Shown: positions 135 through 61,125, counted from the first letter of the stretch. The stretch: DNA of 64,000 nt from Patescibacteria group bacterium (GCA_041661385.1 JBAZUP010000001.1:640907-704906); one strand, 5' to 3'. Made by a program: numbers and translations. Notes: generated by a model not told the origin, from the letters alone.

Positions 135-434
135 TCACTTGTGGCGAGCGACGTAATTATATACCCGGTGCGAAGCAGCGGGTATATAAAAATTTTTTAT
201 CAAAATTAACTTTTCCGTCCGGGAAAGTTTTTTTATTTTTATTTCTCTTTTCAGAGCAGCGGAAAGAGTTTTGTATTTTTCAAAATATACTAAATTTACC
301 GGCCTACGGCCGCGGGTATACTTTGCACCGGCTTTACCACCATTGTGGTCACTCAATCGTTTTTCAATGTTGTTCGTGTAGCCGGTATAAAGCGAACCAT
401 CAGAACACCTAAGAATGTATACAGTATACTGCAC
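135..434 (-). CDS. GIY-YIG nuclease family protein
   Basis: 99 aa; YILRCSDGSLYTGYTNNIEKRLSDHN is a canonical GIY-YIG motif. Confidence 0.8.
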   Translation of the reverse strand: MQYTVYILRCSDGSLYTGYTNNIEKRLSDHNGGKAGAKYTRGRRPVNLVYFEKYKTLSAALKREIKIKKLSRTEKLILIKNFYIPAASHRVYNYVARHK

Positions 435-1087
435 ATTTTTAAATTAAAAATACTCACTTTTGCCCTTATTTTACACGATTTTCTCGTTTGCAGCAATTTA
501 AATTAGTTGCGCACCACTTATCCACCGACTGTGCACTTTTTATCAATATAATCCTTGCCAATTATCTCATTGGGTATTTAATAACGAGATAGTGTGTGAT
601 TTTAATCCACGATTCAACTTCAGCAAAACAAACAAACTGATTGTGGCAGTTTCTGCCGAAAAATCAACAAGCTACTAAGCGAACCCCTAAGTTAATCTTT
701 ACAATTAACTTAGGAGCTCATCTTTCCGACTTAACCGAATATTTATCGCTAAGGTTAATAAAGGAAAATATGAAGCAATGGGCAAATAAAACAAGGAATG
801 TTATCAGATGTTTATATTTGAGAATGTTTCGAACACGCATTAATCCGTCAATGCGGGTATTATTTGTTAATTTTTTTGGATTAATATTTTTAAAAAGACA
901 AATTTAGTTTGTCTTTTTTTATTATTATTCAAAAAAATTTAATTATTAACTCGGTTAAACAAAGAGGGTGTCACTTCCACCAAACCAAAAGGTCGAATGG
1001 TATGAGGTGATTATTAAAAAAATTTAACCGGCAACCTAGCTGATTTTTATAATAAATAGGAAAAACCAGCGGGATAATAAATATCAT

Positions 1088-1966
1088 ATGAATAAAAAAA
1101 TATTTTTAAGCTTCGCGATGATTGCAGCGGTCGCAGCGATTGGCATTGGCGCTACTACTGCTTTTTTCGCGGATACTGAAACATCAACTGGCAACACTTT
1201 CACAGCCGGTGCGATTGATTTAACTGTTGATAGCACGGCGCACTACGACGGGCTTATTTGCGTGGCAAATATTGATGCGCCCGGCTACCATTGGGCACTC
1301 GAAAATGCGCAAGTACCTTCAACTCGGCCTGATTTGATTGATAAGGCCTGCGGTGGCAGTTGGCTACTTACCAATCTTGGCCCGACCAATCAATTCTTCA
1401 ACATCAGCGACCTCAAACCGGGCGACCAGGGTGAAAATACTATCTCGCTTCACGTCGATAACAACGATGCGTATGCGTGTGCAGATGTAAGAATCACCTC
1501 CAACGCAGAAAACAGTGTTCTTCAACCGGAAATTGCTGTCGGCGACAGCACTACCACTGTTGGAAACTTTGACGGCGAACTAGCACAGAATGTTAATTTC
1601 TTTGCCTGGGCCGATAATGGCGTTACTAGTACTGACGGCCAAATTGGAAAAGGTGACAATGTTTGGCAAGTTGGTGAACCGGCTCTCTTCACAAACGGTG
1701 TTGGCCCTGCGAGTGATGTGCTTGGCGGCAAAAGCTATATGTTAGCTGGCCCCGGTAATGCACTTCCTAGCGGAAGCACCAGTTATATCGGTCTAGCCTG
1801 GTGTGCGGGCAGCATGACTGCCGTTAACGGTGTCATAACTTGTAACGGAGCTGCGATGGGAAATATTACTCAAACTGACTCCATGACTGCAGATGTTACC
1901 TTTCGAGTCGAGCAGGCCAGAAACAACCCAAACTTCACCTGCGTTCTTCCACAACTTGTTGAATAA
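1088..1966 (+). CDS. camelysin/TasA-family (peptidase M73-like) secreted protein with SipW-cognate signal peptide
   Basis: N-terminus MNKKIFLSFAMIAAVAAIGIGATTAFFADTETSTGNTFTAGAIDL matches the SipW-cognate signal class plus TasA/camelysin N-terminal core (NLKPGD-like motif present); lies upstream of sipW. Confidence 0.8.
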   Translation: MNKKIFLSFAMIAAVAAIGIGATTAFFADTETSTGNTFTAGAIDLTVDSTAHYDGLICVANIDAPGYHWALENAQVPSTRPDLIDKACGGSWLLTNLGPTNQFFNISDLKPGDQGENTISLHVDNNDAYACADVRITSNAENSVLQPEIAVGDSTTTVGNFDGELAQNVNFFAWADNGVTSTDGQIGKGDNVWQVGEPALFTNGVGPASDVLGGKSYMLAGPGNALPSGSTSYIGLAWCAGSMTAVNGVITCNGAAMGNITQTDSMTADVTFRVEQARNNPNFTCVLPQLVE

Positions 1967-1987
1967 TTTATCCTAAGCTTAATTTAG

Positions 1988-2013
1988 CCTACCCTGATTT
2001 AACTCAGGGTAGG
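1988..2013 (+). terminator. intergenic stem-loop between tandem camelysin-like genes (partial terminator/attenuator candidate)
   Basis: cctaccctga-tttaac-tcagggtagg perfect 10-bp stem; no strong U-tract. Confidence 0.3.
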
Positions 2014-2027
2014 TATACAAGGCGAAT

Positions 2028-3434
2028 ATGAAAAAAATAATAATAAGCCTTGGGATAATCCTGAGTATCGTGGCTGTAATCGGAATAACCGGAACAAGGG
2101 CCTTTCTTTCTGACTCAGAAAAGTCAGTTGGCAACACTTTCACAGCCGGAGCCATTGATCTGAAAGTTGATAATGAAAGCTATTACAACGGCGCTATTTC
2201 GCAAGCGACCACTTTTGGTCCGAGCGACCTAATCGACGGAAAATTGCTTATCAACTTTAGAGATTTGAAACCGGACGACGAAGGTGAAGACACCATTTCT
2301 TTGCATGTGAATAATAATGACGCTTGGCTCTGTATGGATATGTCACTCACCACCAATGACGACATTTCCTCTAATGAGCCAGAGCTCGGAACCGGCGACG
2401 CCCCAGAAGATATCAATAATACCTGGGACGGAGAGCTGGCCGACAATGTGCGAATGATCTGGTGGGCCGATGATGGCGATAATGTGCTTGAAGTCGGAGA
2501 ACCGCTGTTAAATGGCGGGGTCAAAACGGTCAAGGATTTCTTTGGCCCGAACCTGACTTCCTCAATAGATCTCGTTGATGCCACGACCAATGTCTGGAAT
2601 CCAAACCAGTTGGGACCAGCGGTAGGCGGCCAAGATTATTACATCGGCAAAGCCTGGTGTTTTGGCACAATGGCTGAAGCTCGCGTCGCACAAGACGGAC
2701 AAGGCAAATTGCCTGATAGTACCAATGGCCCATTAGTTCGGGGAACCGGCACAACCTGTAATGGCGCCGCTCTCGGCAACCAGACACAGACCGATGGCGT
2801 AACCATGAATATTGCATTCCGAGCAATGCAGGCAAGGCACAACACGGGCTATACCTGTGATACAGAGCAACGCCTGGCAACGATTACTGTCACCAAACAA
2901 ATCATCAATGACAACGGCGGCAACAATGTTGTCGGCGATTACCAGTTGTTTGTCAGTGATGGCGCAAACACCATTCCTCTCACTTCCGGAGTTCCAACTG
3001 TAGTGCCAGTAGGCAACTACATCGTTACGGAGACTGGGGTGCAGGGATATGTCGGTTCCTTCGCGGGACCAGATTGCAACTCAGTAGGCCAAATTACTTT
3101 ACTTGAAGGAGATAGTAAAGCTTGCACGGTCGTAAATAACGACCTGCCGCCGAATATCACTTTGATAAAGAATGTGCTTAGTGGAACAGCCAACCCCTCA
3201 ACCTTTGGGTTGAAGGTCGATGGCGCCTTAGTACAAAATGGCTCATCGGTCGCGGTGACATCCAACGCACCTCATGCGATTACCGAAGACGGCTTACCTG
3301 GTTATACGTTTGTCGGACCAATTACCGGCACCTCTAACTACGGTCAATCCTGCCCGACTACTTTGGGTGGATCCATAACACTAGCCGAAGGCGAAGCGAT
3401 TGTTTGCACTATTAATAACGCTCTAACGCCATAA
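2028..3434 (+). CDS. camelysin/TasA-family secreted protein with two C-terminal beta-sandwich (prealbumin/Cna-B-like) repeats
   Basis: N-terminus GITGTRAFLSDSEKSVGNTFTAGAIDLKVDN parallels preceding gene; C-terminal ~90-aa duplicated module (NYIVTETGVQGY... / GYTFVGPITGTSNYGQSCP...). Confidence 0.8.
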   Translation: MKKIIISLGIILSIVAVIGITGTRAFLSDSEKSVGNTFTAGAIDLKVDNESYYNGAISQATTFGPSDLIDGKLLINFRDLKPDDEGEDTISLHVNNNDAWLCMDMSLTTNDDISSNEPELGTGDAPEDINNTWDGELADNVRMIWWADDGDNVLEVGEPLLNGGVKTVKDFFGPNLTSSIDLVDATTNVWNPNQLGPAVGGQDYYIGKAWCFGTMAEARVAQDGQGKLPDSTNGPLVRGTGTTCNGAALGNQTQTDGVTMNIAFRAMQARHNTGYTCDTEQRLATITVTKQIINDNGGNNVVGDYQLFVSDGANTIPLTSGVPTVVPVGNYIVTETGVQGYVGSFAGPDCNSVGQITLLEGDSKACTVVNNDLPPNITLIKNVLSGTANPSTFGLKVDGALVQNGSSVAVTSNAPHAITEDGLPGYTFVGPITGTSNYGQSCPTTLGGSITLAEGEAIVCTINNALTP

Positions 3435-3549
3435 TAATCTCAAAAAATCCTAAAGGCTAAAAAAGAATACGAATTCTTTGAGGCTGCCCCATCGGACCAA
3501 GGCCGAAAGGGACAGCCGATTGAGGATTTGAAAAACTAACTATAATTAA

Positions 3550-4086
3550 ATGAAAATATTCAATATCATCTATTATTTGTTCTTTGGCTGTATCTGCACG
3601 ATTGCAACTCTTTTACTCGTTTCAATTTTTCCGATTACTGGAAATATCAAAATTATGTCCGTACTTTCCGGTTCAATGGAACCGGCAATCAAGACCGGCA
3701 GTATTGTAATTGTTAAACCGGCCGCAGATTATAAAGTCGGCGACATTATCACCTTCGGTAAGATCAGCAGAACGCAAACCCCAATCACACACCGCATCAA
3801 CGAAATCAAAGGCCTGGGCGCAACACGGATATTTATTACCAAAGGCGACGCTAACAATGCGCCTGATAGCAAAGAAGTAAGGCTGGGTGAAATTGTCGGC
3901 AAAGAAATACTAACCGTTCCATATGTTGGTTACGCTATCAACACCGCCAAAAAACCTTGGGGCTTCGCGCTAATAATTATGATCCCCGCTTTGCTTATAG
4001 TCTTTGATGAAGGGAAAAAAATATGGGATGAAATAATAAAAATAAAAAATAATAAAAAAAATGAAATCCAAAATCAAGAAAATTAA
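3550..4086 (+). CDS. sipW: signal peptidase I, SipW/archaeal-ER type (S26B)
   Basis: 178 aa; N-terminal TM, SGSMEP catalytic-Ser box, ITHRI and GDANN boxes; closely parallels Bacillus SipW. Confidence 0.85.
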   Translation: MKIFNIIYYLFFGCICTIATLLLVSIFPITGNIKIMSVLSGSMEPAIKTGSIVIVKPAADYKVGDIITFGKISRTQTPITHRINEIKGLGATRIFITKGDANNAPDSKEVRLGEIVGKEILTVPYVGYAINTAKKPWGFALIIMIPALLIVFDEGKKIWDEIIKIKNNKKNEIQNQEN

Positions 4087-6547
4087 AAAAGCTTTAAACA
4101 AAGCCCGCGCAAAAAAACACTCGGTATTTTTAGTGAAACCTGTTGCGTTTGGTTTTTCCCACCGACCACTGATGCGCGTGTGTGCCACAATTTTACTTTT
4201 CACCATGTGCGCGCTGCAATTGCGCGGCGTAAGTGGCACCCGTGCTTTTCTTTCCAATTTAGAAACATCCACCGACAATACTTTTACTGCCGGCACTTTG
4301 GATTTCAGCCTATCTTCGCAAGTCTCAACCACTTCCACCTGCGCCGCTTTTGGTAAACCTATCAAAAAAACTATTAGCATCACCAATCTTGGCAACTCAT
4401 TCCGATATCAGGCGAAAGCCGGCGAATTAGCCGGCGCGGTTTGCGATTATGTCTGGCTAGAAGCCAGTCTCAGCTCCGAATTAAAATATTCTGGACTCGC
4501 CAAAGATTTTGATTATGGCCTGACTGAATTCACTGACCCAAATGCCTGGGGTTTTTCACTATATTTTTCATCTACCACGCCAGCGAACCTGCAAGGACAA
4601 ACTTGTGAATTTAATTTCGATTTTCTGGGTCAGCAAACTCGGAACAATCTGGTATTTCCAACCGGTTTTTCTGATCGAGAAATTTCTACAACAACCTTGC
4701 AAGCGCCATATTGCGAGGATTTTGAAGTTCGTTCCGTGGGATATTGGAGAACCCATTCATCCATTTATCTTCCACTTTTGCCAGTGTTTCTTGGCGCTAC
4801 TACCACCCTACCAAACGGACAACCGACCAGCACCAACGAAATGATCAATACCCAAACCAAGGTAAATAATATCTTCAATGCCTCCAACAGCATAATGCTC
4901 AACAAACTAAAAAAACAATTGCTTGCAATGAAATTTAATATATTTAATTTCCATATTGATGCCTATGTGCCGCCAGAAAGTTCTGATGATATGGATACGA
5001 TTGTGGCACAGGCCGACGCGCTGCTCCGTCGTATCCCAGCAGCTCCCGATACCGAACTGGAGGTAATGAAAAATCTTTTGGAAAGTATTAATATCGCGAT
5101 TTCATTACGGATTTGCACGTGTGAACCACCCCCGCCACCAAACAGTTGCGCGCTGCGCATTACCAAAACATCTAACAAAACAGAAGTTGCGCCGGGCGAT
5201 ATTATAACCTATCATTTAACGCTAGATAACTATGGCACCAAAGTTTGTACTGGTGGCGGCGTACGTATTGATGATAACTACCCCTCTACGCTTGAATATA
5301 TCGGCTATACCGTTAACCGCACTCTCAGCTACGATAATATATCAACAGGAGTTATTGAGTGGAATTTTGGCAATGTCTATCCCAACGATCCGCTGATTGA
5401 AATAGATCTTAAATTGAAAGTTGCTAACAATGCTGATTATACCAAGGCGGCTTGTGGTTCGATTATAACCAACTCGGCCAAATACTGGTCCAACCAAACC
5501 GATTGGGGCACGCCGGTAACCGCTGAAAGCAAGGTTGTCTGCTCGGCGCCGGGAACACCAACGGTCGTCCTCAATGAATTTTTACCAAACCCCATCGGTG
5601 CGGATAACGCGAATAAACCCGGCGGCGAATGGATAGAACTTTACAACCTAAGCACCAGTTCTGTTGATGTGAACGGCTGGGCGCTTTACGACGAATCCGA
5701 TTTACATAAACTCCTCATCACGCCGGCAATTACTAACACCGGATTAACCGTGATTCCTGGAGGCGGGTTCTTGGTAGTTTATCGCAACGGTAGTTCAAGT
5801 TTTGCTCTGGATAATGTTGGCGGGGATTCAGTCCGACTATTTGATGGTCAAATTTCGAATGGCGCAAATTTAATTGATTCATTTGTTTACTCGGAAGACG
5901 CGCCCGCAGGCAAATCTTTCGCCCGCATTCCTGATGGTTCCAGCAATTGGGTTGATCCAACCCCGACTCCTGGTGAAGAAAACTCTTTACTCGACGCCTT
6001 TGCTTTCTTCGGCCCGGCTGTACCAGAAGAAGGTGAAGACGATTATATTGCACTCATACCAGAACAAATTACTACCGATTCGTTAGCAACAAAAACAAGC
6101 AGTGTCATCATTGAACCAACAACTACTTTAGAAATAGTAACTAGTAGTGAGATCATTGCACCGGTGACCACCTCAACTGAGCCAGTAACAGAAATTTTAA
6201 TAAATAATTCCCCGGACCAAGGTGCGACATCTTCGCCGATGACTACTTCGTCCACGGTAAGTTTACCAACCGCAGAGCCGACTGTGCCGCTTGATGAAAT
6301 AGCAACTCCGCCAATCCAAGAACCGGTAGTTGCGCCTATTATTGAAACAACAATCATACCGGAACCAACTGAACAATCGACAGCTCCAACTACCGAAACA
6401 ATCGAGCCGGTTACTACCCCGGAAACACCGGTGATTCCAGAAAATACAAGCGACACAATTCAAGTCGAAAGCCCGATTGCTACAATGCCACCAGAAGCAA
6501 TAATACCAACGGCACCAACGGTAACCGATAACGGCTCCGGTGCATAA
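4061..6547 (+). CDS. large secreted/cell-surface protein: SipW-cognate signal, camelysin-like core, DUF11-like domain, lamin-tail-like domain, Pro/Thr/Glu-rich tail
   Basis: GVSGTRAFLSNLETSTDNTFTAGTLDF signal; PGDIITYHLTLDNYGTKV... resembles DUF11; LNEFLPNP...GEWIELYNLS...VNGWALYD resembles lamin-tail domain; start may be the in-frame ATG at 4172 rather than 4061 (overlaps sipW). Confidence 0.7.
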   Translation: MKSKIKKIKKALNKARAKKHSVFLVKPVAFGFSHRPLMRVCATILLFTMCALQLRGVSGTRAFLSNLETSTDNTFTAGTLDFSLSSQVSTTSTCAAFGKPIKKTISITNLGNSFRYQAKAGELAGAVCDYVWLEASLSSELKYSGLAKDFDYGLTEFTDPNAWGFSLYFSSTTPANLQGQTCEFNFDFLGQQTRNNLVFPTGFSDREISTTTLQAPYCEDFEVRSVGYWRTHSSIYLPLLPVFLGATTTLPNGQPTSTNEMINTQTKVNNIFNASNSIMLNKLKKQLLAMKFNIFNFHIDAYVPPESSDDMDTIVAQADALLRRIPAAPDTELEVMKNLLESINIAISLRICTCEPPPPPNSCALRITKTSNKTEVAPGDIITYHLTLDNYGTKVCTGGGVRIDDNYPSTLEYIGYTVNRTLSYDNISTGVIEWNFGNVYPNDPLIEIDLKLKVANNADYTKAACGSIITNSAKYWSNQTDWGTPVTAESKVVCSAPGTPTVVLNEFLPNPIGADNANKPGGEWIELYNLSTSSVDVNGWALYDESDLHKLLITPAITNTGLTVIPGGGFLVVYRNGSSSFALDNVGGDSVRLFDGQISNGANLIDSFVYSEDAPAGKSFARIPDGSSNWVDPTPTPGEENSLLDAFAFFGPAVPEEGEDDYIALIPEQITTDSLATKTSSVIIEPTTTLEIVTSSEIIAPVTTSTEPVTEILINNSPDQGATSSPMTTSSTVSLPTAEPTVPLDEIATPPIQEPVVAPIIETTIIPEPTEQSTAPTTETIEPVTTPETPVIPENTSDTIQVESPIATMPPEAIIPTAPTVTDNGSGA

Positions 6548-6558
6548 AAAATAATAAA

Positions 6559-7695
6559 ATGAAAACATCCGAACTAAAATTCCAACTCCTAAAATTATCC
6601 GCGCTTGTTGTCGCGTGGTTATTTGTATTCAATCCATTACCCGCAAAAGCTGGCAACATCGCTGATATATATTTTGAACAGTCACCGCTGTTTGGGTCAA
6701 CAGATATTGTACCAGGTGATACCGTTGCGAAGTGGGTAAGGGTAATAAATAAAGTGAATGATAATCTAATCGTGACGACTGCGGCTTCTAGTGTAATTAA
6801 TGATGATCATTTAGGTGATCGGCTAAATTTAATAATTAAAAAAAATGGCGTTCTAATTTATTCCGGAACAATGTCAGAATTTTTCACAGCCTCTGAAACG
6901 ATACTCGGCACCATAGCTCCTTACCAAACCGGTCAATATTATTTTACCGTGTCATTCGATAATGCTGCGGGAAATAATTTTCAAGAAAAAACCTTATCTT
7001 TTGATATTGCCGTTTCCGCCCAAGTTTCAGAATCAATTGGCGGCGAAACCCAGGCACCTCAAGGTGGTAGCTCCGGCAACAGTGAATATATTATCAGCGA
7101 TTTAAATTTAACAAATATCAGCGCAAACCTTGTATCAAATCTTTCCACTTCTTCTATCACTATTACTTGGCTTACCAATAAGGCGGCTACATCACGGGTT
7201 GTATATGATACTGTGCCGCACCCCGATCTATCTATGGCTCTGCCACCAAATTACGGATATGCTTCTTCCACCATGCTTGATACAAATAAAGTTACGAGCC
7301 ATTCCGTCACAATTTCCGGATTACTCCTCGGGCAAGCATATTATCTAAGGCCGATTTCTGCAGCATCGCCGGAAAAATTTGGAGCCGAGTTGGCAGTCAT
7401 ACCAAGTGGCGCGGAGCAAATAAATAATACCCAAACTTATAAAAATAACAGCGCAACATATGTTCCAGCTGAATCGCCGGAGAATGAAATCAAAAATATA
7501 AAAATTGCACAAACTGTCCCGATTGCTTCGCCAAGGAGTGAAATCAAAGGCATAAAAATTTCCCGTACTTCCGGCGCCAATAACTTAACCGAATCTGGAA
7601 TCGGCCCTCTGGAGATTGTCTTTTCGGGAGTAAGCATCCTGATTTTGTTTTCTCTCAGAATATTATTAAAGAAAAATAGCGTAGTTACAGATTGA
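6559..7695 (+). CDS. secreted protein with camelysin-like N-domain, FN3-like domain and C-terminal TM anchor
   Basis: 378 aa; signal peptide; IVPGDTVAKWVRVINKVNDNL resembles TasA core; ITITWLTNKAATSRVVYDT FN3-like; hydrophobic C-terminus. Confidence 0.55.
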   Translation: MKTSELKFQLLKLSALVVAWLFVFNPLPAKAGNIADIYFEQSPLFGSTDIVPGDTVAKWVRVINKVNDNLIVTTAASSVINDDHLGDRLNLIIKKNGVLIYSGTMSEFFTASETILGTIAPYQTGQYYFTVSFDNAAGNNFQEKTLSFDIAVSAQVSESIGGETQAPQGGSSGNSEYIISDLNLTNISANLVSNLSTSSITITWLTNKAATSRVVYDTVPHPDLSMALPPNYGYASSTMLDTNKVTSHSVTISGLLLGQAYYLRPISAASPEKFGAELAVIPSGAEQINNTQTYKNNSATYVPAESPENEIKNIKIAQTVPIASPRSEIKGIKISRTSGANNLTESGIGPLEIVFSGVSILILFSLRILLKKNSVVTD

Positions 7696-7719: not shown

Positions 7720-7748
7720 GGCCCTAGGTGCAATTCGCACCTAGGGCC
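7720..7748. terminator. GC-rich perfect hairpin between convergent genes (bidirectional terminator candidate)
   Basis: ggccctaggtg-caattcg-cacctagggcc, 11-bp perfect arms. Confidence 0.5.
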
Positions 7749-7766: not shown

Positions 7767-8975
7767 TTACTTCTTCTCCCCCGTTGTGGTGAGCCTCGCG
7801 TCTTCGGCCACCTTTACGCGGTCGAATACATAAACGCACTTCTCACCTTCGGCAGCGCCGCAGGGGTTGTCTTTCCTCTCCTTCACTTTCACCCAGTGAC
7901 CAGTGTCCTTGAGGACGCTGATCTTGGGCACATCGAGCCGGATCTTTTCTTCCACCTTCGGTTCAGGCTTCACTTCAACCTTCACCTCGGGCTTCTTGCT
8001 TGCAAGCTCGATGTCTGCAACCTTCAACGCGGAATTCACGTCGTACACGCAGTCAACAGCGACCACGCCAACGACACCGAGTGAAGAGTTGTTTGAAAGG
8101 CCGAGCCCTACACCAAGCGCCTTGTCGGCGGCATAGTTTGCAGCTCCGCTCGAGCTACCCCCTTGGCCATCTTGGCCGACCGTGAGGTAGACCTGATGAC
8201 CGTAGACGGTGACAATCTTGCGATTGAACGGAGCCGGGATGAGAACCTCATCCACCAGGAACGGCTTTTCATTGTCGAAACCATCGAGCATGCCGTGCAT
8301 CGTCTGCACGCGAACACCCGTCTGCCACAGACCAAAGATCTGTGGAACATGAGCATTGCGCTCGAATGGGCGAACCATGACCCTACGGCCGCAGTCGCCC
8401 ATCTTCTCGAGACGAACACCGCCCATGGCGATGGTGGTCGGAAGCGACGGCGGCTGCACCGGGAAGAAAGTGAGCTCCCGGCTGTTGTCGACATTGGTCG
8501 TGGTCTGATTGACCACCGCACCTCCGCCATTGCCGGAGTTTTCCACCTTCGCCTTGCCGCCCTCAGCGTTTCCGCCAGTTGCATTTCCGCCGGCAGCATT
8601 GCCACCCGCGCCACCAGCACCTCCTTGCGAGGTGGAAGAAGACGAGGCGTCGCCTGTCCTCACATCTCCGGTATGAACCGAAGTGTTCTGGTCACCAGTG
8701 GTGGAGGTCGAGGTAGAACCCGACTGTGCGTTGCCGCCAGTTGCCGTCGAAGCAGAGTTCGACGCCGAGTTGGCATTCGCGGTGACCTGTTGATTCTGGT
8801 CTTGAGACTGATGTTGGTTCTGATCCTGCTTCTGGTTCTGAGTCTGGGTCTGATTCAGGTTGCACGGCTTTCCCTTGGGGTGGCCGTGCTTTTCATCATC
8901 GCAGGCGAAAGCCGACGAAACGAAAAGGAATTGAACGAAAACCGCGAACACTGCCGCAAGCATCTTTTTTGACAT
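7767..8975 (-). CDS. GC-rich secreted protein of unknown function, Gln/Asn/Gly/Ser-rich low-complexity N-half (compositional island A)
   Basis: ATG at 8975 preceded by GGAGG (8983-8987 complement); MSKKMLAAVFAVFVQFLFVSSAFA signal peptide; strong GC3 codon bias unlike flanks; ORF-track start 9047 is an upstream in-frame alternative. Confidence 0.55.
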   Translation of the reverse strand: MSKKMLAAVFAVFVQFLFVSSAFACDDEKHGHPKGKPCNLNQTQTQNQKQDQNQHQSQDQNQQVTANANSASNSASTATGGNAQSGSTSTSTTGDQNTSVHTGDVRTGDASSSSTSQGGAGGAGGNAAGGNATGGNAEGGKAKVENSGNGGGAVVNQTTTNVDNSRELTFFPVQPPSLPTTIAMGGVRLEKMGDCGRRVMVRPFERNAHVPQIFGLWQTGVRVQTMHGMLDGFDNEKPFLVDEVLIPAPFNRKIVTVYGHQVYLTVGQDGQGGSSSGAANYAADKALGVGLGLSNNSSLGVVGVVAVDCVYDVNSALKVADIELASKKPEVKVEVKPEPKVEEKIRLDVPKISVLKDTGHWVKVKERKDNPCGAAEGEKCVYVFDRVKVAEDARLTTTGEKK

Positions 8976-9255
8976 CGAACTGCCTCCGTGGGTGAAAATC
9001 GATTGACCATCAACTTTCTTCATTGCGCAATTGTTGCTTTTGCACAACTGAAGATTCTATCATTTTTTTACCATATTGTCAATGATATATCGATATATTT
9101 AACTGAGCTCCAATCGTATTATCAACCGTAGAATTACCCCAAATCACTTAAAAACCGCCCTTACTTGGTTTATGCACCCTGTTCTACCCTTGATTTTTCA
9201 AAATATTTATGCTATTCTAGTCAAACAAAAATTGATGTTTTTACGCTAATAAAGC

Positions 9256-9341
9256 GGAGAGGTGGCCGAGCGGTTTAAGGCAACAGTCTTGAAAACTGTC
9301 GTGCCTAATAAGCACCGTGAGTTCGAATCTCACCCTCTCCG
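9256..9341 (+). tRNA. tRNA-Ser (anticodon TGA)
   Basis: GGAGAGG...CCTCTCC acceptor, long variable arm, anticodon loop CTTGAAA, T-arm GAGTTCGAATCTC. Confidence 0.9.
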
Positions 9342-9358
9342 CTTTGTTAGTAATAAAC

Positions 9359-9484
9359 GGAGATGAGATTCGAATGGGAAAGGGAGAAAACGGGAGTTTT
9401 TTCTTGATGAGGAAAGCCCACGAAAACCCGAACGGTTTTCGTGAGAGCGAAGCGAGTTCGAATCTCCGATCGCCGCTTTGTTAG
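9359..9484 (+). repeat. tRNA-3'-associated structured element, copy 1
   Basis: begins ggagatgagattcgaa (inverted copy of the tRNA-Ser T-arm and 3' strand). It contains hairpin agaaaacgggagtttttct, core TGATGAGGAAAG, and hairpin GAAAACCCGAACGGTTTTC (9422-9440). It ends gagttcgaatctccgatcgccgctttgttag, a direct copy of the tRNA 3' end and trailer. Confidence 0.6.
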
Positions 9485-9497
9485 TTAAAAATGTAAT

Positions 9498-9584
9498 GGA
9501 GAGGTGGCCGAGCGGTTGAAGGCGTTGGTCTCGAACACCAATAAAGTCGAAAGACTTTCGTGAGTTCGAATCTCACCCTCTCCG
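9498..9584 (+). tRNA. tRNA-Ser (anticodon CGA)
   Basis: same acceptor/T-arm as upstream tRNA-Ser; anticodon loop CTCGAAC; long variable arm aaagtc-gaa-agacttt. Confidence 0.9.
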
Positions 9585-9626
9585 CTAAATTAAATACCAT
9601 CCAATAGGGGTGGTATTTAATTTATT

Positions 9627-9763
9627 GTGAATGATGAGATTCGAACTAAAGATGGAAAGAAACGAAGTTTCTTTCGTGCTGAGGAAAGTTCACGAAAACC
9701 CGAACGGTTTTCGTGAAGCGAATGAAATGAACGTGTTCGAATAGCGAAGTGCTCACCCTCTCC
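9627..9763 (+). repeat. tRNA-3'-associated structured element, copy 2
   Basis: gatgagattcgaac (inverted T-arm) ... gaaagaaacgaagtttctttc hairpin ... TGCTGAGGAAAG ... GAAAACCCGAACGGTTTTC (9694-9712) ... gtgttcgaata...ctcaccctctcc (direct 3' acceptor copy). Confidence 0.6.
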
Positions 9764-39998: not shown

Positions 39999-42900
39999 AT
40001 GTATAATTTAAACGTTAATGTTCTTATGGTGCTTGTCGAGAACATCGCTAAAAAATCCAAGAGACTTGGCAACTGTTTATATAGCCGAGGAGTTTTAATT
40101 TTAACATTGTCGCTATTTGCGGCAATTTTTATTTTTTCCATTAAAACTACCGCCGCAACACCGCCTCCATTCATTACTTATCAAGGACGGCTTTATGTTG
40201 GCACTGCTCCGGCGACCACTACTTTGAATATAAGTTTTACAATGTTTGATGCGCCGACTGCCGGTACGGCAATTTATACCGCATCAGGAACGGTGGGGGT
40301 TCCTGCGGCAGTAAGTACCACACCAGTAAACGGATTATTTACCGTGTATCTAGGTGACACCGGAACAAACGCTCTTGATCCAACTTTGTTTCAGAACAAC
40401 AGCAGTGTTTATTTGGAAGTAGTCGTAAATGGTGAAACATTATTGCCTCGTAAAAGAATTATTTCAACTCCGTTTGCATTTAACGCAAAATATTTAGATG
40501 GTATTGGCGCGACGAGCGCCGCTTCAACTTCTGCCTACATTCCAGTTTCAGATTCAAGCGGAAATTTTAATTTAAATAAAGTTACTTCAACTGGTTTAAA
40601 TGTAACCGGTCAGTCTTCGTTTGCCACCTCAACATTTACCTCAACGACAGTCGCAAACGGAAATATCACAAATTTAATTGCGGGTTCAATTACAACAACA
40701 AATTTTAACACAGTATCTTTTGGCAGTACCAACGCAACTTTTACAAATGTTACTTCAACTAATATTTCTGGTACAAATGCTAACTTAGTTAGTTTGACTT
40801 CGACAAACCAGTTTGCAATTGGCTTAGCCGCGACAAACTTTAATAGTGTCAACGCCACTTCGACTAATAGTTATTCTTCAAATTTTGGTGCGTTAAATTT
40901 GGTCGCTACAAATGTAACCTCAACCAATATTTTTTCTTCGGGCCTGTCATTTACAAACTTAAGCGGCACATCGGCAAATGTAACCAACGTAACAACAACA
41001 AACTTTTTTTCCTCTTCACTAGTTGTAACAAATGGAACAATTACAGATTTTAATTCGACAAACGCTTCTACTACAAATCTATATGTTTCGGGGCTTGTGA
41101 ACTTGCCCGCGAATTCAGTGACAGATGCCATGATTTTTTCGGCAACAACTTGGAACGCAAAACTCGGCCCCAGTTATCCAGCCCTCGCCACCTCATCATT
41201 CTTATATATCGGTTATCAAGCGCTTGCTTCTTCGACTTATTTAACAAACTCCTATTCTGCGCTTGCAACTTCATCGTTCCTCGGTGTTAGTTATCCAGCC
41301 CTTGCTACATCGACATTTTTAACAATTGCCAATTCTACCTCTCTTGCTTATCTTGGACAAAATTATCCGTCGCTTGCTAGCTCAACATTTTTAAATCAAA
41401 ACTATACCGCAATAGCGACTACGACTTTTGTTTCTTATGCTGGAGCAAATAGTAATGTTGATCTTGGCAGTCATGGCATTACTTTTTTAAATGCAACGGG
41501 TACCTCACTTACCTCAACAAATATTTCCGGCACTAATGGTATTTTCGCGAACCTTACTTCAACCAATTCATACATTAGCAATCTTTCAGTTGGGAATTGT
41601 GTCGGCTGTTCTGGTGGTGGGGGCGGAGGCGCGGTGAATACTTCTACTGGGAACTATTTTTCTTATTATTTAAATAGTACCTCCGTTACGGGTACGCCAT
41701 TTATGGTTTTAAGCGGGAGCACAATTGCCATATCCGGCGGTTTAGATGTTACAGGTATTTCTTCTCTTGCTACGACCACCATCACGTCATCAACTATTTC
41801 ATATTTAAACGCAACCAACGTTACTTCGACGTATGCAACTATTACAAATGCCACGTTAACAAATTTAGCTTCTCTAAATCTTTCAGCTACAAATATCGCG
41901 GCAACAAATATTCAATCTACGAATGCAACATCCACCAATCTTGGTATATTGGGGTTGTTTAGTTATGCAAATGCTAGCGGTGTGTCGCTTACCTCGACAA
42001 ATTTATACACTCCAGGACTCTCTTTTACAAACGCAACCGGTACTAATCTATATTTATCAGGACCTGGCAACTCTTTAAATATAGCGAACAATGCAAACAT
42101 TAACGGAACTCTTAGCGTCGGCACAGTTTCTTCTACTAATTATATTGGCAATGCTCAAAATTTATCATTAGCACGTATTGGACAATCAACCTACTCAACA
42201 ATTCAACATTTACAAGATATATTTCATTCTTCCGGTTGGGTAGCCGGCGGCGTAATTGCTGATATTGGAGCCGGTAATGTTAGTGTAGCGGGTGGAACCG
42301 GTTTAATAAGAGGGCAAAATCAAGCAACAACAACTCTGTATTATTTCGATTGGACAGCTTCTTCTAGTATTACAATCGCTGTAAATACAATTCGATATTT
42401 GGGTGTTGAATATAATGGCGGTTCACCGCAAGTGGCACTAAGAACAACTGGAAATTGGAATTATAAAACAGATTTTCCACTTGGTAGAGTTGTAAATGAA
42501 AATGGCACGCTATATATTTCAAATGATGTTCAGGGGGTCGGAGATCATGCCGCCAATATGATTTTAAGAGAGTATGAAACTATGCCGCTCGCGCGTGACG
42601 AAAGAAATGGCGGTCTAATGTTGGGTGAAACCGGAACAAGAAATATTACAATGACAGCGGGTGCTCTTTGGGATCGCTTAAATCGATATCCAATTTCAGC
42701 AATTAATACTGGTGTTAGTGGAAATTTTGATATTTATGTCGGAGCAACGCTAAGCTCTTCCACGCAAACACAATGGCCAAATGCTTATTTTGATAATGCA
42801 GGCGTGCGCACAGTAATGACGAATAATCGTTATGCAAACTTATGGTTTTTCGTTGAGATGGACGGACGGTTGGTAATGGTATATGGAACAAATCAATATT

Positions 42901-45900
42901 CATCAGCAGCCGCTGCGCAGGCTGAAACCATGCCAGTCACTCTTCCGGACCGATTAATTTCCGACGGAAAATTAATTGGTAGAATAGTGTTTTTAAAAAA
43001 TGCCGCTACCGCAACGACAGTTGACTCTGCATTTGATATGGCGTTATCTGTTTCGCAGGCAACGAACCACGCCAATTTGTCGAATCTAGACTATGCTTCA
43101 TCGAATCATACTGGTTTTCAGGCCGCGATTACTACCGGTAACACTGCTCAATATTTCCGCGGTGATTTATCTTTAGCAACTTTAAATCAGGCAGCTATCG
43201 CTGGACTTACAATAACCGACAGTCCGACATTTTTTGGAGTTAGTACTACAAACGCAACAACAACAAACTTTCTGACCACCAATGCAACCTCCACCAATCT
43301 TAATATATTAGGATTGTTTAGTTATGCAAATGCGAATGGTACTTCACTTACCTCGACCAATTTATACACTCCAGGACTTTCTTTTGTGAATGCAAACGGC
43401 ACCTCACTTACCTCGACCAATATATTTACGAGTTTATTTAATGCAACAAACGGAAACTTTACAAATGTTACTACCACTAATCTCTCAGTCGCAACTAGGC
43501 TTTCTTTTGTAAACGCAACTGGTACGAATATTACTTCAACTAATATTTATAATAGTAACCGTTTCGTTTCAATGGGCGATGTAATGATCGGAACTACAAC
43601 ACCGGGCCGGTCACTCGTAGTTTCTAAAGATCAGGCGAACCCTACCGGAATTAATATTTCAAATAAAACTAATGGCGCGGCGTCTAATGCCGGATTATTT
43701 CTTTCAAATGACACTGGTAATGATGACGGTCAATTATTTAAATACGCATCTGGCAATATTGGTTATAAAACTTTAGCTGGTAGCGATCTAGGTTTTTATA
43801 ATGCCGTCGGAGGTAATATTTCGATCTTGAATGATTATGCTTCGGGAAATATAAATTTTGCCGCCGGAGCTGTATCATCGCCACAGCTTATTATTTTACC
43901 AACGGGATTGGTTGGTATTGGTACTGCGGCACCTTCCTCAACACTTCATGTTGTTGGTAATGGTATATTTAGCGGAATATTAACTTCAACAAGTTTTGTT
44001 GCAACCAGGGCGACTACTACCAATCTTGCTGTTACTACCGGGCTTTCATTACCAAACACCAGTGTTACCGATGCCATGATTTCTTCGGCAGCTACCTGGA
44101 ACGCCAAACTCGACTCAAGCTATTCGGCGCTTGCAACTTCTACGTTTCTTAATCAAAGCTATACCGCACTCGCTACCTCAACTTTTCTTTCACTCACCGG
44201 TGGCACGCTGACGGGTGGTTTAAACTTTACTAATGCGACCGGTACCAATCTCAATCTCACCGGCCTATTTAATTTCGTTAATGCAACTGGCACTTCTATC
44301 ACTTCCACCAACGCCACCTTCTCAAGTTCGATTAAGCTTTCATATATAGCAAGCTGTAATGCAAGCAATCAGGCGCTCCAAACTGCTGCTGATGGTTCGG
44401 TATCTTGTGGCACGCTGACTGTTGGCGGTGGGGGTGGCGGAGGAGTAAACACTTCCACGGCCGGATATTTTACTTATTATTCAGGTGCAACTTCGGTCAC
44501 GGGTACTCCATATATGAGTAACGTTGGAAATACTATTGCTTTCACTACTAATACTTCTTTCACCACTTCATCATTTTCTGGTTCGATTGGTGTCGGCACT
44601 ACTAATCCGACATCCAAACTCCATGTATATGATGGAACTTTGTCAGTAGATAATCCGGTTCATCCGAGATTAATTACAACGTATTCCGAAGGGACAATTA
44701 GTGACGCTACTCATCTTATTGTGTCTGGAAAATATGCCTATATAACCGATTATAATAATAATTCACTAACTATAATGGATATTTCTAATCCTGCTTCAAT
44801 GCAGCTAGTTGGCAGAACAGCGAGCGCGTCAAAATTATTAAACGCGAATTATGTTTATGTGGCAGGAAAATATGCTTATGTCGTAGCCTATGGTGTAAAT
44901 GGTCTTGCTGTCGTTGATGTCTCAGATCCGGGCGCACCTACAACCTCAGGTTTTGTAAGCGACCCTACATTACTAAGTCAGCCAGATAAAGTTTATGTTT
45001 CAGGAAGATATGCTTATGTGTCTTCTAACGGCAATAATGGATTAACGATAGTTGATATTTCAAATCCAAAAAAACCGACTATTGCTGGATCGATATCAGA
45101 TGCAACAAATTTGGGGGGAATATCTGGTGTTTATGTGGTTGGTCATTATGCCTATGTGACTTTTGGTTGGGCACCTGGAGGCATGTCCATTATTGATGTT
45201 GCAAATCCGGCTAGTCCGGTAGTGGTCGGTCATACTGAACATCCATACTATTTCAAAGGGCCGTTTTCTATTTATGTTTCGGGCAAGTATGCGTATGTTA
45301 CAACTAAAGACAGTAACGGTCTTGCAGTAGTTAATATTTCTAGTTCGACCGCTCCAACTACGACCGGATTTACTTCATCGACTTATTTAAAGGCTGCGGT
45401 AGATGTCCAGGTTTCTGGAAATTATGCTTATGTTGGAAGTTATGGGGTAGTGGGTGGGGGTATTGCTGTCGTTGATGTCTCCAATCCGGCTGCACCGACC
45501 ACGACCGGAGGGTATACGAGTGCTAGTGTTGGAAATTTGAATTCAATATCTGTTTCGGGTAAGTATGCTTATGTTGTAGCTAGGTGGAGTAATTGGATTT
45601 CATCTTTTGATCTAGAGGGTGCAAATATTTCTACCGCCAATATTGGCAATGTTGCGGCAAGTGATTTGACGGTTTGGGAAAACGCAGAAATCGGAAATAA
45701 TTTGTATGTCGGAAGTGGGTTGAATGTGGGTCTGAACGGAATTAGTACGATGGGACAATTAAACGTGTTTTCTACTACCACCCTACTCGGACAAGTAAAA
45801 ATTGGCACCACGACCGCGCTTTCTACTGCGATGCTTCATGTTGATGCTGGTACCTCCACCGCCTATGGTCTTGCGATAAATGGTTTTGCTCGCGCAACGG

Positions 45901-46883: not shown

Positions 46884-46912
46884 ACTCACGAAGAAGTTGA
46901 ATAATTGATGTT

Positions 46913-47539
46913 ATGATTAAAAAAATAATAATTTTATCTTCGTTTTTAACACTGTTTATTCCACAGTTGGTTTTTGGTGTCATGACCTCAACAAATTATA
47001 GTATTATTTTCGATTCAGTTGGGCTTGCGGGCGGCGACAATCTTACTTCAACCTCATATTCACTTAGTGAAACAATCGGCGAAACACCAGTGCTTACTAG
47101 CTCAAGCACTACTTATCAGATTCAGGGTGGTTATCAGGCTTCAATTTTTGGCTCCTTAGGCATTTCACTCAATACCAATTCTTTAAATCTTGGGACGCTT
47201 TCAGACACTGCTGTAAATAGCGCTACGGCGATTGCGACAGTAACAAGTGAATCTGCCGGTTATTTACTTACTGTTAATAGTGCGACCGGCGTAATGCCGG
47301 CCGCGGTTGTTGGCGGCACAGTGACTGCCGGTACCGAAGGATACGGCTTTAGCGCAAGTGGTCCGAATAGCGCGATAGTTGGAGATGTGCCGGTCGTGGG
47401 TGGAACAATCATCGCCTCAACCACGGCTCAAGTAATTAACGATCAAAACACTTTGACATTTAAGGCAGCCGCGAGCAGCACTAGTGTTGCCGGTACTTAT
47501 AGTCAATCTGTTGATTTAGTCGTATCTCCAAATTATTAA
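46913..47539 (+). CDS. secreted hypothetical protein
   Basis: 208 aa, signal peptide MIKKIIILSSFLTLFIPQLVFG; Ser/Thr/Gly-rich. Confidence 0.5.
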   Translation: MIKKIIILSSFLTLFIPQLVFGVMTSTNYSIIFDSVGLAGGDNLTSTSYSLSETIGETPVLTSSSTTYQIQGGYQASIFGSLGISLNTNSLNLGTLSDTAVNSATAIATVTSESAGYLLTVNSATGVMPAAVVGGTVTAGTEGYGFSASGPNSAIVGDVPVVGGTIIASTTAQVINDQNTLTFKAAASSTSVAGTYSQSVDLVVSPNY

Positions 47540-47540
47540 T

Positions 47541-51577: not shown

Positions 51578-51632
51578 CAAAAATTATCCTTCAAAAAAAT
51601 TCAATTTTGCTAATTTTAGCCAAATTTACCTA

Positions 51633-51661
51633 TTGACTTTTTGGCTAAAATATGCTATAAT
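51633..51661 (+). promoter_or_regulatory. sigma70-type promoter (TTGACT-17-TATAAT)
   Basis: ttgact 51633-51638, 17-nt spacer, tataat 51656-51661; falls inside the 5' end of ORF-track ORF 51641 (TTG start), so the real CDS must start downstream. Confidence 0.6.
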
Positions 51662-51784
51662 ATCACTGTTAAGCTTAACAATTTACATACCTCACAGCCC
51701 CTAGTTTTAACTAGGGAGGGTGGTGGGCGAAAAACGTCTAAAAAACACATTTTTGGAGTTATTCGCAAGTTTCTTCTTCACCAT

Positions 51785-58344: not shown

Positions 58345-58350
58345 AAAAGC

Positions 58351-60011: not shown

Positions 60012-60015
60012 AAAT

Positions 60016-61122: not shown

Positions 61123-61125
61123 ATA

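Follow-up and report, generated by a model that had tools for sequence, protein, structure and literature searches.

Does the five-gene locus at 1088-7695 encode a surface fibre and, if so, which of its products would start the fibre, build it, end it and hold it on the cell? The window analysed here is the whole stretch of 64,000 nucleotides from a Patescibacteria group bacterium (GCA_041661385.1 JBAZUP010000001.1:640907-704906); positions are counted from its first letter and features lie on the + strand unless stated otherwise. The original prediction had seen a sipW gene flanked by genes for its substrates, and the ORFs it claimed are all present: five + strand ORFs that form one unit, preceded by a promoter-like site and followed by a strong terminator. 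They are gene A (1088-1966, 292 aa, a putative major shaft subunit), gene B (2028-3434, 468 aa, a paralog of A and putative decorated or minor shaft subunit), gene C (3550-4086, 178 aa, the SipW-like archaeal/ER-type signal peptidase I), gene D (4061-6547, 828 aa, a putative tip or initiator adhesin) and gene E (6559-7695, 378 aa, a putative acceptor-only terminator and anchor). The reading frames of C and D overlap by 26 nt. Upstream of A lies a sigma-70-like promoter candidate, TTAACC-18-TATAAT (1024..1053, 10/12 matches); sites of this kind are no commoner in the region than expected from shuffles, so that the candidate alone is weak evidence. The operon is closed by a 13-bp GC-rich bidirectional terminator hairpin (7720..7748; region dG -34.2, z -6.05), which it has in common with the convergent gene at 7767-9047.

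By profile and motif, C is an archaeal/ER-type signal peptidase, as had been proposed. It gives a full-length match to TIGR02228 (126.9 bits, cutoff 51.85, residues 2-153), carries the motifs SGSM (S42), THR (H81) and GDAN (D100), and has hydrophobic segments at its N- and C-terminus. We take S42, H81 and D100 to be the catalytic residues, in line with SipW mutagenesis, with Ser/His(/Asp) replacing the bacterial Ser/Lys dyad. Against NF046067, the SipW-Bacillus model, C scores 122.3 bits, under the equivalog cutoff of 190, and therefore has no ortholog-level match to Bacillus SipW.

We then asked which of the neighbouring proteins C may process. The model of the SipW-type signal, TIGR04088 (cutoff 19 bits), matches the N-termini of A (26.1 bits) and B (22.9 bits). 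D scores 13.6 bits, under the cutoff; its motif AFLSNLETSTDNTFTAG is explicit and common to all D-like proteins, and the SipW-type motif reads literally as GTRAFLSNLETSTDNTFTAG at residues 58-78. E gave no TIGR04088 match in the HMM search and no NTFTAG-like motif in the motif scan, and its signal (residues 1-31) is of the ordinary type, ending in AKA|G. The SipW-type motif is thus carried by exactly three window proteins, A, B and D, rather than by the four or five substrates originally claimed, and of the two downstream genes said to repeat the SipW-cognate N-terminus only D does so. A, B and D would be the substrates that C cleaves.

Cleavage by C is predicted at A25|F26 in A, whose signal peptide spans residues 1-25, and at A62|F63 in D, in which a basic extension precedes the signal. 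Immediately after these sites come FFADTETSTGNTFT in A (residues 26-39, nt 1163-1204) and FLSNLETSTDNTFT in D (nt 4247-4288), and the corresponding stretch of B is FLSDSEKSVGNTFT (nt 2103-2144). In all three proteins the SipW-type motif aligns with the donor strand of TasA, defined by cryo-EM as residues 28-38 (PMC9674648). Within the A family F26, D29, E31-S33, N36 and F38 are invariant or near-invariant, and residues 15-40 of A are disordered in the AF2 monomer model (pLDDT <50). Taken together, alignment and model suggest that mature A, B and D begin with a donor strand that is free in the monomer, the feature expected of TasA-type donor-strand exchange. A different reading is that nothing polymerises, SipW maturing monomeric adhesins or coat proteins for which the N-terminal motif is a recognition or retention signal only. 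The TIGR04088 and PF12389 signal of A and B does lie mostly in the signal region, and JGI labels A-type homologs only as 'peptide with SipW-like signal peptide'. The conservation, however, reaches about 14 residues past the predicted cleavage site, over a stretch that corresponds to the TasA donor strand and is disordered in the monomer model, and we consider this reading improbable.

The Peptidase_M73 family (PF12389) raises a further question, since A passes its gathering score (32.2 bits, residues 8-51). If the family name is taken literally, the products would be secreted camelysin-type metalloproteases. On A and B the match covers residues ~6-51 only, that is the signal and the donor strand, leaving the core uncovered, and the matches of A, B and D are confined to profile positions ~6-74. 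The expected camelysin relationship thus holds for the signal and donor strand of A and B and does not extend to the core. No HExxH-type motif was seen in the translations of A, B, D and E when read by eye, and the structural literature on TasA treats the family as fibre subunits (PMC9674648). We rejected the metalloprotease reading because the Pfam match does not reach past the signal and donor strand, and would now give it hardly any credence.

What follows the donor strand differs between the proteins. A and B are clearly related to one another (blastp E 1.6e-58; 39% identity over the core), and the A family has six invariant Cys. In sequence and profile comparisons this Cys-rich core resembles neither TasA nor the D and E cores beyond the donor strand, and an A-family profile found no match among PDB sequences. 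In the AF2 model of A (pLDDT 83) this core is a beta-sandwich. When the A model was compared with the PDB by Foldseek, the top match was the TasA fibre 8aur_A (E 4.8e-4, prob 1.0), at a modest TM of 0.32/0.39, and the second was the archaeal bundling pilus 7ueg_A. The suggested likeness of A to the TasA fibre fold is therefore upheld by the identity of its best match and tempered by the TM; the evidence for a TasA-like A core is this fold search, and we regard the support as modest. B additionally carries two C-terminal prealbumin/SpaA-like domains (nt 2877-3131 and 3186-3422; SpaA_2 28 bits), and many A-family homologs of 400-510 aa contain PF19403.

D and E are linked to TasA by another route. 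In D, the donor strand is followed by a compact TasA-type core (about nt 4289-4624), an unassigned stretch at residues ~190-360, a DUF11 domain (nt 5153-5452, Pfam 44.9 bits), a lamin-tail domain (LTD; nt 5549-5890, Pfam 51.4 bits) and a T/P/I/E-rich tail (nt 5981-6544). The 828-aa adhesin-like protein of the original prediction is thus indeed a member of the substrate set. In E, a TasA-type core that lacks the donor strand (nt 6652-7029) leads through a Gly/Ser linker to an FN3-like domain (nt 7096-7413). Because hhalign of the E family directly against the A family gave no relation (probability 1.6% and 0.7%), the link from E to TasA runs via the D core and via compact CPR homologs of TasA. 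The D-core and E-core families align at 96.6% (E 5.5e-10). On the D side this alignment begins at mature position 15, directly after the donor strand, and on the E side at position 3 of the N-domain alignment, the first mature residue, G32. The E core aligns with the compact CPR TasA homologs at 95.8%, and these in turn match B. subtilis TasA (5of1/8aur) over the whole core (E 2e-9). At profile level, the cores of D and E thus appear homologous to TasA, E by way of the D core and the compact homologs. The AF2 model of the E N-domain has a pLDDT of ~90. Generic tandem beta-sandwich proteins dominate the Foldseek list of E; 8aur_A (E 2.6e-4) ranks 42 in it by E-value, and no entry surpasses it in TM (0.40) or rmsd (6.3).

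The distal part of E agrees with the original description of an FN3-like domain and a C-terminal membrane helix. PF16656 scores 24.4 bits on E, below its cutoff of 30; it is precomputed on most E homologs, and AF2 places a beta-sandwich at residues 184-280. A pentapeptide LTESG (nt 7585-7599) is followed by a transmembrane helix (nt 7615-7668) and a basic tail (nt 7669-7692), the C-terminus reading IVFSGVSILILFSLRILL and then KKNSVVTD. The donor motif is absent from all 21+9 listed E homologs, all of which have an ordinary signal and a C-terminal transmembrane segment with a basic tail. An exhaustive search returned 1401 E-family clusters at E<=1e-10, with a C-terminal transmembrane segment in 123 of the 142 top members, and in nearly all top matches the E-type domain starts at residue ~25-37. 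One exception is a large protein (P0173) with an E-type core behind a SipW-type motif. With its conventional signal and without a donor strand, E is therefore a candidate acceptor-only terminator and anchor.

How E is held on the cell appears to vary between lineages. The LTESG of the window E is not an LPXTG-like pentapeptide, and tblastn with two CPR sortases found no sortase in the 64-kb window; the window E probably stays membrane-anchored, judging from this motif and from the genes that adjoin it. Its close homologs carry LAETG, LSETG, LTATG, LAPTG, LVPTG or LTPTG, and in 4/5 of the E homologs with LxxTG a sortase gene lies immediately downstream. A sortase stands directly downstream of E in four loci (L005, L031, L033 and L034), none of the loci without the LxxTG motif has an adjacent sortase, and most related loci have none. 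The transmembrane anchor originally assigned to E is therefore apt for its hydrophobic helix and basic tail, but incomplete for its closest relatives, with their LAETG-type sorting signal and adjacent sortase. In those relatives E would be handed to the cell wall by the adjacent sortase. These sorting signals, the SpaA_2 domains of B and a weak match of E to FctB-type pilus anchoring proteins (E ~0.002, found beside FN3 matches when the full E profile was compared with PDB sequences) would also suit a covalent SpaA-type pilus built by a sortase, with B as pilin and E as LPXTG base pilin. Against this, sortase is absent from the window locus and from most related loci, A, B and D have no sorting signals, the window E has LTESG, and the single adjacent sortase of the relatives fits wall-anchoring of E only. 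Since the chain of profile matches that leads to TasA is much stronger, we kept the FctB-type match as a minor rival only, and we think a covalent pilus of this kind very unlikely.

Recurrence of the arrangement was assessed in related genomes, using the alignment of close homologs (A4) for the metagenome scan and counting only loci with enough flanking sequence. The order sipW-D-E is kept in all 27 of the 27 other loci so counted, usually with 1-3 TasA-like genes in front, and every related locus has a D-like gene that separates sipW from E. These loci come from Parcubacteria-type, Saccharibacteria-labelled, Berkelbacteria, Nealsonbacteria and Sungiibacteriota MAGs. Two loci (L013 and L014) are miniature: besides sipW they encode an LTD protein that is donor-only, a compact homolog of TasA and a transmembrane protein that is acceptor-only. 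Their D-like proteins consist merely of signal, donor strand and LTD. The L014 protein in the position of A matches PF12389 over positions 6-185 of 196 (39.4 bits), and the E-like protein of L013 matches it from profile position 38 onward. A triad of donor-only, donor-plus-acceptor and acceptor-only proteins is what a strand-exchange chain requires, and its presence in these loci is further evidence against a role of the SipW-type motif in monomer recognition or retention alone.

The conserved position of E also bears on the possibility that the locus makes a free matrix as in Bacillus, with A/B fibres running between cells, D acting as a TapA-like nucleator or chaperone, and E being merely a co-transcribed surface protein. 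SipW and TasA-type donor strands are shared with tapA-sipW-tasA, matrix scaffolding is the best-known role of TasA-family fibres (PMC9674648), and D, with its full core, need not be terminal. E, however, has the TasA-type core of D minus the strand, invariably comes next after D and always has a membrane or cell-wall anchor, and in a protein that does not bind the fibre this combination of core, position and anchor would be difficult to account for. We therefore think a free matrix unlikely, and favour a fibre that is tied to the cell.

On balance, we think that the locus probably encodes a complete TasA-superfamily fibre that is anchored to the cell and assembles through donor-strand exchange, in which D is the tip or initiator, A and B form the shaft and E is the terminator and anchor. 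With similar confidence we propose that a single five-gene unit in this ultra-small, reduced-genome Patescibacteria/CPR bacterium holds separate genes for tip, shaft, peptidase and membrane-anchored base. The central idea of the original prediction, a surface fibre with a SipW peptidase, TasA-like substrates, an adhesin and an anchor, is thus supported by the synteny and by the fold and profile evidence, with the correction that E is not a SipW substrate. We infer polymerisation, polarity, the tip and base roles and the adhesion target, and envisage assembly as follows. A, B and D would be exported by Sec and held at the membrane through their SipW-type signals until cleavage by C behind the A-x-A-like site (A|FF, A|FL) frees a strand of ~14 residues, F-[FL]-[AS]-[DN]-x-E-x-S-x-x-N-T-F-T. 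The first shaft subunit would take up the strand of D in its beta-sandwich, and its own strand would thereby be freed for the next subunit, such that the fibre grows at its cell-proximal end. E would take the last strand and, having the same core with none to release, end polymerisation, while its FN3 stalk and C-terminal transmembrane helix tie the fibre to the envelope. At the distal end D would display DUF11, the lamin-tail domain and the long T/P/E-rich tail as the adhesive part. Since the D of the window combines a donor strand with a full core, it could sit within the fibre and not only at the tip.

The closest parallel that we find, by analogy of architecture, is the haloarchaeal Tafi system, with its tip TafC, shaft TafA/E, anchor TafF and signal peptidase TafD (PMC11821415, PMC12337348). 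TafF has a TafA-like domain, a C-terminal transmembrane segment and a signal type other than that of the strand donors (PMC11821415). By architecture alone, the two systems are alike in combining in one locus an archaeal-type peptidase, a strand-donating shaft, a multi-domain tip or initiator and an anchor, in the proposed order tip, shaft, anchor-terminator, and in an anchor made of a shaft-like N-domain and a C-terminal transmembrane segment behind a signal unlike that of the donors. They differ in that the present locus is bacterial and of the Sec/SipW type whereas Tafi uses Tat, and in that this locus shows neither a TafG/DUF5305 partner nor a TafB regulator. The tip here has DUF11, the LTD and a low-complexity tail, and the anchor has an FN3 stalk, to which some lineages add a sortase signal.

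The equivalence to tapA-sipW-tasA suggested originally is looser. B. subtilis tapA-sipW-tasA and B. cereus sipW-tasA-calY share with this locus the SipW-type peptidase, the SipW-cognate signal, the donor strand (TasA 28-38) and, apparently, the TasA-type jelly-roll core, which D and E resemble by sequence through the compact CPR homologs and A by fold. The TasA-like donor strand of the accessory protein D also recalls what has been proposed for TapA. However, family HMM searches gave no TapA-type match for any of the five proteins, the genes here run shaft, shaft, sipW, D, E, and the acceptor-only anchored E has no described Bacillus counterpart. The shaft core is moreover much larger, Cys-rich and unrecognisable by sequence, and the host belongs to CPR rather than to the Firmicutes.

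Anchors have been suggested for other TasA-superfamily systems. The sipW-bsaA-bsaB-bsaC operon of Clostridium perfringens and other operons of the BsaA/TasA family likewise combine SipW with several TasA-family paralogs per operon (PMC11580942). These BsaA operons neighbour LPxTG, FN3, SpaA and sortase genes, and an LPXTG-bearing BsaB paralog has been speculated to anchor the polymer (PMC11580942). There, BsaA subunits are locked by intermolecular isopeptide bonds and BsaC is a VWA protein; in the present locus the anchor demonstrably lacks a donor strand and the tip carries an LTD. The archaeal bundling proteins AbpX/AbpA form TasA-superfamily strand-donation fibres, and 7ueg_A, the second-best fold match of A, is one of this group (PMC9245690). 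For the AbpX-like clusters of bacteria, it is predicted that strand complementation brings LPXTG or SLH anchor proteins into the fibril (bioRxiv 10.64898/2026.01.04.697558). AbpX is related only marginally by sequence (E 0.07-0.13), and those systems have another peptidase type and other accessory genes.

In cultivation, Patescibacteria grow attached to other microbes; to our knowledge only type IV pili have so far been studied as their appendages, and the anchoring of TasA fibres is still unsettled for Bacillus itself. The present locus would offer a simple and genetically explicit model for how a TasA-type fibre starts, ends and is attached to the cell. We raise, as a tentative possibility, that Patescibacteria have a second, widespread, non-type-IV pilus, a SipW-dependent fibre of the TasA superfamily, which is started by a donor-only or donor-first LTD tip and stopped by an acceptor-only base with a membrane or sortase anchor, and whose tip attaches the episymbiont to its host or to a surface. 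If so, no complete strand-exchange pilus system simpler than the two miniature four-gene loci would be known. The tip LTD and the anchor are concrete targets for studies of host attachment. The module is very common in the group, with >2291 homologs of the shaft protein A, mostly in CPR, and ~1400 clusters of the anchor core at the threshold given above. The E family has so far carried no annotation beyond hypothetical or 'fibronectin type III' protein, and naming it as a TasA-type acceptor-only subunit would improve the annotation of thousands of genes. A search of the literature for TasA, SipW, camelysin or the lamin-tail domain together with CPR/Patescibacteria yielded only the statement, in a survey, that PF12389 occurs in Patescibacteria (PMC9245690). 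The design of tip, shaft and anchor is thus known as a proposal for archaeal pili and is undescribed for Patescibacteria/CPR.

Chaperone-usher pili (type 1/P) are likewise donor-strand-exchange fibres with a tip, a shaft and a terminator, although their proteins are unrelated, no chaperone or usher is present here, and the polarity is reversed, in that here the tip would donate the strand and the base would be acceptor-only. In those pili the stoichiometry is set in part by mRNA structure after the major subunit gene, and stem-loops that might serve such a purpose had been noted between the genes of this locus. Both exist. A perfect 11-bp hairpin lies between A and B (1987..2013, dG -22.4, z -4.57), with none of 200 shuffles as stable, and a structured region of two nested hairpins precedes sipW (3435..3549, dG -30.1, z -3.81). 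An Rfam search of the window returned only tRNAs, and the intergenic hairpins match no known RNA family. The hairpin between A and B was considered as a terminator and rejected because the terminator scan found no U-tract; it may stabilise the mRNA or act as an attenuator, to the benefit of A relative to the downstream genes. Stable hairpins were found 3' of the shaft genes in all eight loci checked, the window and seven others (z -3.6 to -5.7), and those of the seven other loci are unrelated in sequence to the hairpins of the window and equally stable. This gives indirect support to the suggestion that the hairpins tune stoichiometry, and we propose that structures 3' of the shaft genes probably raise the ratio of shaft to accessory subunits.

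The locus at 1088–7695 consists of five closely spaced ORFs on the plus strand: two putative shaft genes, A (1088–1966, 292 aa) and B (2028–3434, 468 aa), the sipW-type signal peptidase gene C (3550–4086, 178 aa), the putative tip or initiator gene D (4061–6547, 828 aa), which overlaps C by 26 nt, and the putative terminator or anchor gene E (6559–7695, 378 aa), which starts 11 nt past D. A promoter-like site lies upstream of A (1024–1053) and a 13-bp GC-rich bidirectional hairpin (7720–7748) ends the unit ahead of a convergent gene. A has its best homologs in Kaiser-, Giovannoni- and Yonathbacteria and other Paceibacterota, and an identical E is present in a ‘Patescibacteria group bacterium’ MAG; the host was thus rightly taken for a reduced-genome bacterium.

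The assignment of C as an archaeal/ER-type signal peptidase is borne out by TIGR02228 (126.9 bits, cutoff 51.85) and by the motifs SGSM at S42, HR at H81 and GDAN at D100. Against the SipW-cognate signal model TIGR04088 (cutoff 19), A (26.1 bits) and B (22.9 bits) pass and D (13.6 bits) falls under the cutoff with the SipW-type motif literally present. By regular-expression scan exactly three window proteins carry this motif: A (A↓FFADTETSTGNTFTAG), B (A↓FLSDSEKSVGNTFTAG) and D (A↓FLSNLETSTDNTFTAG). Neither TIGR04088 nor the scan found it in E, which has an ordinary signal ending in AKA↓G, so the original prediction that both downstream genes repeat the pattern is wrong for E.

We find instead that E is related to D through its core. 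In TasA, residues 28–38 at the mature N-terminus form the strand given to the next subunit (PMC9674648), and in A, B and D 14 residues are equivalent to this donor strand. Aligned by hhalign, the D-like N-domains of 7 loci matched the N-domains of 15 E sequences (96.6%, E 5.5e-10, 110 columns). The alignment opens at D mature position 15 (AGTLDF), immediately past the donor strand; on the E side it opens with the start of the mature protein (GNIADI). The E core also matched a set of compact proteins, TasA-like and encoded at the ‘A’ position in other CPR loci (95.8%, E 7.6e-9), whose profile in turn covers the entire core of B. subtilis TasA (5of1_A, 8aur_A; E 2e-9), and in an E-like protein of a miniature locus (L013) the match to PF12389 (Peptidase_M73) begins only at profile position 38. 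These alignments indicate that D and E have a compact TasA-type core in common, and that E carries it without a donor strand. In the AF2 model of E the N-domain reaches a pLDDT of ~90, and 8aur_A is the best of its Foldseek matches by TM (0.40) and by rmsd, although many generic tandem beta-sandwich proteins outrank it by E-value. The donor motif is found in 0/30 listed E homologs, and a C-terminal TM helix with a basic tail in all 30. An HMM of the E core, searched exhaustively, gave 2689 cluster representatives, of which 1401 reach E<=1e-10 and 334 reach E<=1e-30. In nearly all of them the domain begins at residue 25–37, right behind the signal peptide; among the top 142, 123 carry a TM segment at the C-terminus and most others appear truncated. 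The best-scoring relative, P0173 (1206 aa), is an exception to the rule that E-type cores have no donor strand: its core follows a SipW-type motif (AQA↓YFSGTETSPNS), and it is without a C-terminal TM.

Beyond the core, D contains DUF11 (44.9 bits) and a lamin-tail domain (LTD, 51.4 bits) and finishes in a T/P/I/E-rich tail of 188 residues. E carries an FN3-like domain, and a KK tail comes after its C-terminal helix, much as had been read for one of the downstream proteins. D starts with a K-rich extension of ~37 residues (residues 1–37, 4061–4171) before the hydrophobic part of the signal, with M38 as an alternative start. The extension may be real, because the D-like proteins of L005, L006 and L008 also begin with a long basic stretch, in which no internal Met precedes the h-region.

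A and B, which had been read as TasA/camelysin proteins, are paralogs with a core identity of 39%, B having two additional SpaA-type prealbumin-like domains. Their Peptidase_M73 match is confined to the first ~50 residues, and a profile from 53 A-family members gave zero matches in the PDB. The AF2 model of A (pLDDT 83) is a beta-sandwich with residues 15–40 disordered; among its PDB matches the TasA fibre 8aur_A ranks first (E 4.8e-4, prob 1.0, TM 0.32/0.39) and the archaeal bundling pilus 7ueg_A second. Six cysteines are invariant in the A family. The earlier reading thus stands for the N-terminus and the fold of A and not for the core sequence: A and B are a large, divergent, Cys-rich branch, linked to TasA by donor strand and fold.

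We searched the E family against GTDB genomes and JGI metagenomes, added the contigs of E homologs and annotated all loci with custom HMMs. All loci that extend far enough upstream, 27 in addition to the window (L005–L009, L013, L014, L018, L031–L035, L038, L040, L042–L046, L049, L052, L054, L055, L057–L059), have the order of one to three TasA-like genes, sipW, D-like and E-like; four more contigs, outside the 27, end just upstream of D-E. Host labels are Parcubacteria, Sungiibacteriota, Nealsonbacteria, Berkelbacteria, Saccharibacteria and unclassified Patescibacteria. The SipW-type motif is present in all D-like proteins and the LTD in nearly all. In the miniature loci L013 and L014, ‘A’ is a compact TasA homolog (167/198 aa), ‘D’ consists of signal, donor strand and LTD only, with the core absent, and ‘E’, which lacks donor strand and FN3, is a core with TM helices behind it. 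Besides the peptidase, each of the two loci thus encodes a donor-only protein, a donor-plus-acceptor protein and an acceptor-only protein. The sipW gene of L052 (1524–2076) is broken into two ORFs, possibly by a frameshift or assembly error, and in L031 a nucleotidyltransferase gene (NTP_transf_2, 6959–7474) is inserted between sipW and D. A far larger cluster in Kaiserbacteria (L004, CP064968.1, 1732–17136) has five A-family genes in a row, a 481-aa protein that contains a SipW-like region and, upstream, a block with a sortase (9005–9643), a SpaA-like protein and a 1126-aa protein; the last of these weakly matches the E-family profile, of which the FN3 domain is a part. This cluster suggests that expanded versions of the system exist.

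The predicted intergenic stem-loops proved real, both window hairpins being more stable than shuffles (z −4.6 and −3.8). Stable hairpins (z −3.6 to −5.7) also follow the shaft gene(s) ahead of sipW in L004, L005, L007, L008, L013, L014 and L018; their sequences are unrelated among loci and the window has the same positional pattern. Since position is kept, the hairpins would fit a putative differential expression of shaft versus accessory genes.

The nearest E relatives end in a classical sorting signal: LAETG, LSETG, LTATG, LAPTG, LVPTG or LTPTG, then a hydrophobic stretch and last a basic tail. In four of the five sorting-motif loci with downstream sequence a sortase gene directly follows E: in L031, where it overlaps E by 4 nt, in L005, in L033 and in L034, where the contig end cuts it and it shares 85% identity with that of L031. 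Only L035 departs from this, and no locus with a motif-less E has a sortase nearby. The window E has LTESG with the terminator immediately 3′, and tblastn with two CPR sortases found none within the 64 kb, so this E is probably membrane-anchored and its relatives probably wall-linked.

By analogy with TasA and the haloarchaeal Tat-fimbriae (Tafi), subunits would be exported by Sec, and C would then free the donor strand on each of A, B and D. The D strand would prime the first shaft subunit, and each complemented subunit would give up its own strand to the next. E would take the last strand and, having none to give, would end growth and fix the fibre to the envelope, with the DUF11, LTD and tail of D displayed at the distal end. 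A weak point of this scheme is that the window D also carries an acceptor core. The observation of a sipW locus with cognate substrates largely holds, and its interpretation as a surface fibre locus broadly so, except for E, which is a probable terminator/anchor rather than a SipW-type substrate.

PF12389 homologs were already noted in Patescibacteria (PMC9245690), and a tip/shaft/anchor/peptidase design was proposed for Tafi, whose anchor, TafF, combines a shaft-like domain with a C-terminal TM and uses a signal of a different type (PMC11821415, PMC12337348). LPXTG or SLH anchors are predicted to join TasA-superfamily fibrils in bacterial AbpX clusters (bioRxiv 10.64898/2026.01.04.697558), and an LPXTG-bearing anchor, BsaB, has been speculated for Clostridium (PMC11580942). 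In our literature searches we met neither the CPR module nor the LTD tip, nor any paper that treats the E family as acceptor-only, and we therefore judge the module novel as a variant and not as a concept. Given how abundant the module is in Patescibacteria, and given these clean minimal loci, how TasA-type fibres end and anchor becomes directly testable.

Other features surround the operon. The convergent gene (7767–9047, minus strand) shares the terminator at 7720–7748 with E; its 426-aa product has an N-terminal hydrophobic segment and then a long Q/N/S/G-rich low-complexity region, and matched no family in HMM family searches. Past it lies a tRNA-Ser pair (9256–9342 and 9498–9585, anticodons TGA and CGA) with ~150 nt between. 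A 99-aa ORF at 135–434 (minus strand; N-terminus YTVYILRCSDGSLYTGYTNN) looks, by eye only, as if it begins with a GIY-YIG-type nuclease domain. A second surface-protein locus, unrelated to the operon, occupies 39999–52537: a 2294-aa LVIVD-repeat protein (39999–46883) and then a four-gene cluster of probable surface proteins (46913–52537), including a 287-aa member with weak WxLIP peptidoglycan-binding and Ig-like matches and a 1088-aa member with FN3/PF16656 and CarboxypepD_reg domains. On the minus strand, 56252–62853 is a block of type IV pilus genes (PilB-type ATPase at 61126–62853, T2SSE 423.7 bits), which indicates that the genome has type IV pili besides the TasA-type module. Upstream of the window on the same contig (L001), a T4SS_pilin gene (1–264) and a gene for an 838-aa LTD-PKD-PKD-LTD protein (3824–6340) precede the operon by a few kb, so that it is adjoined by another lamin-tail-domain surface protein.
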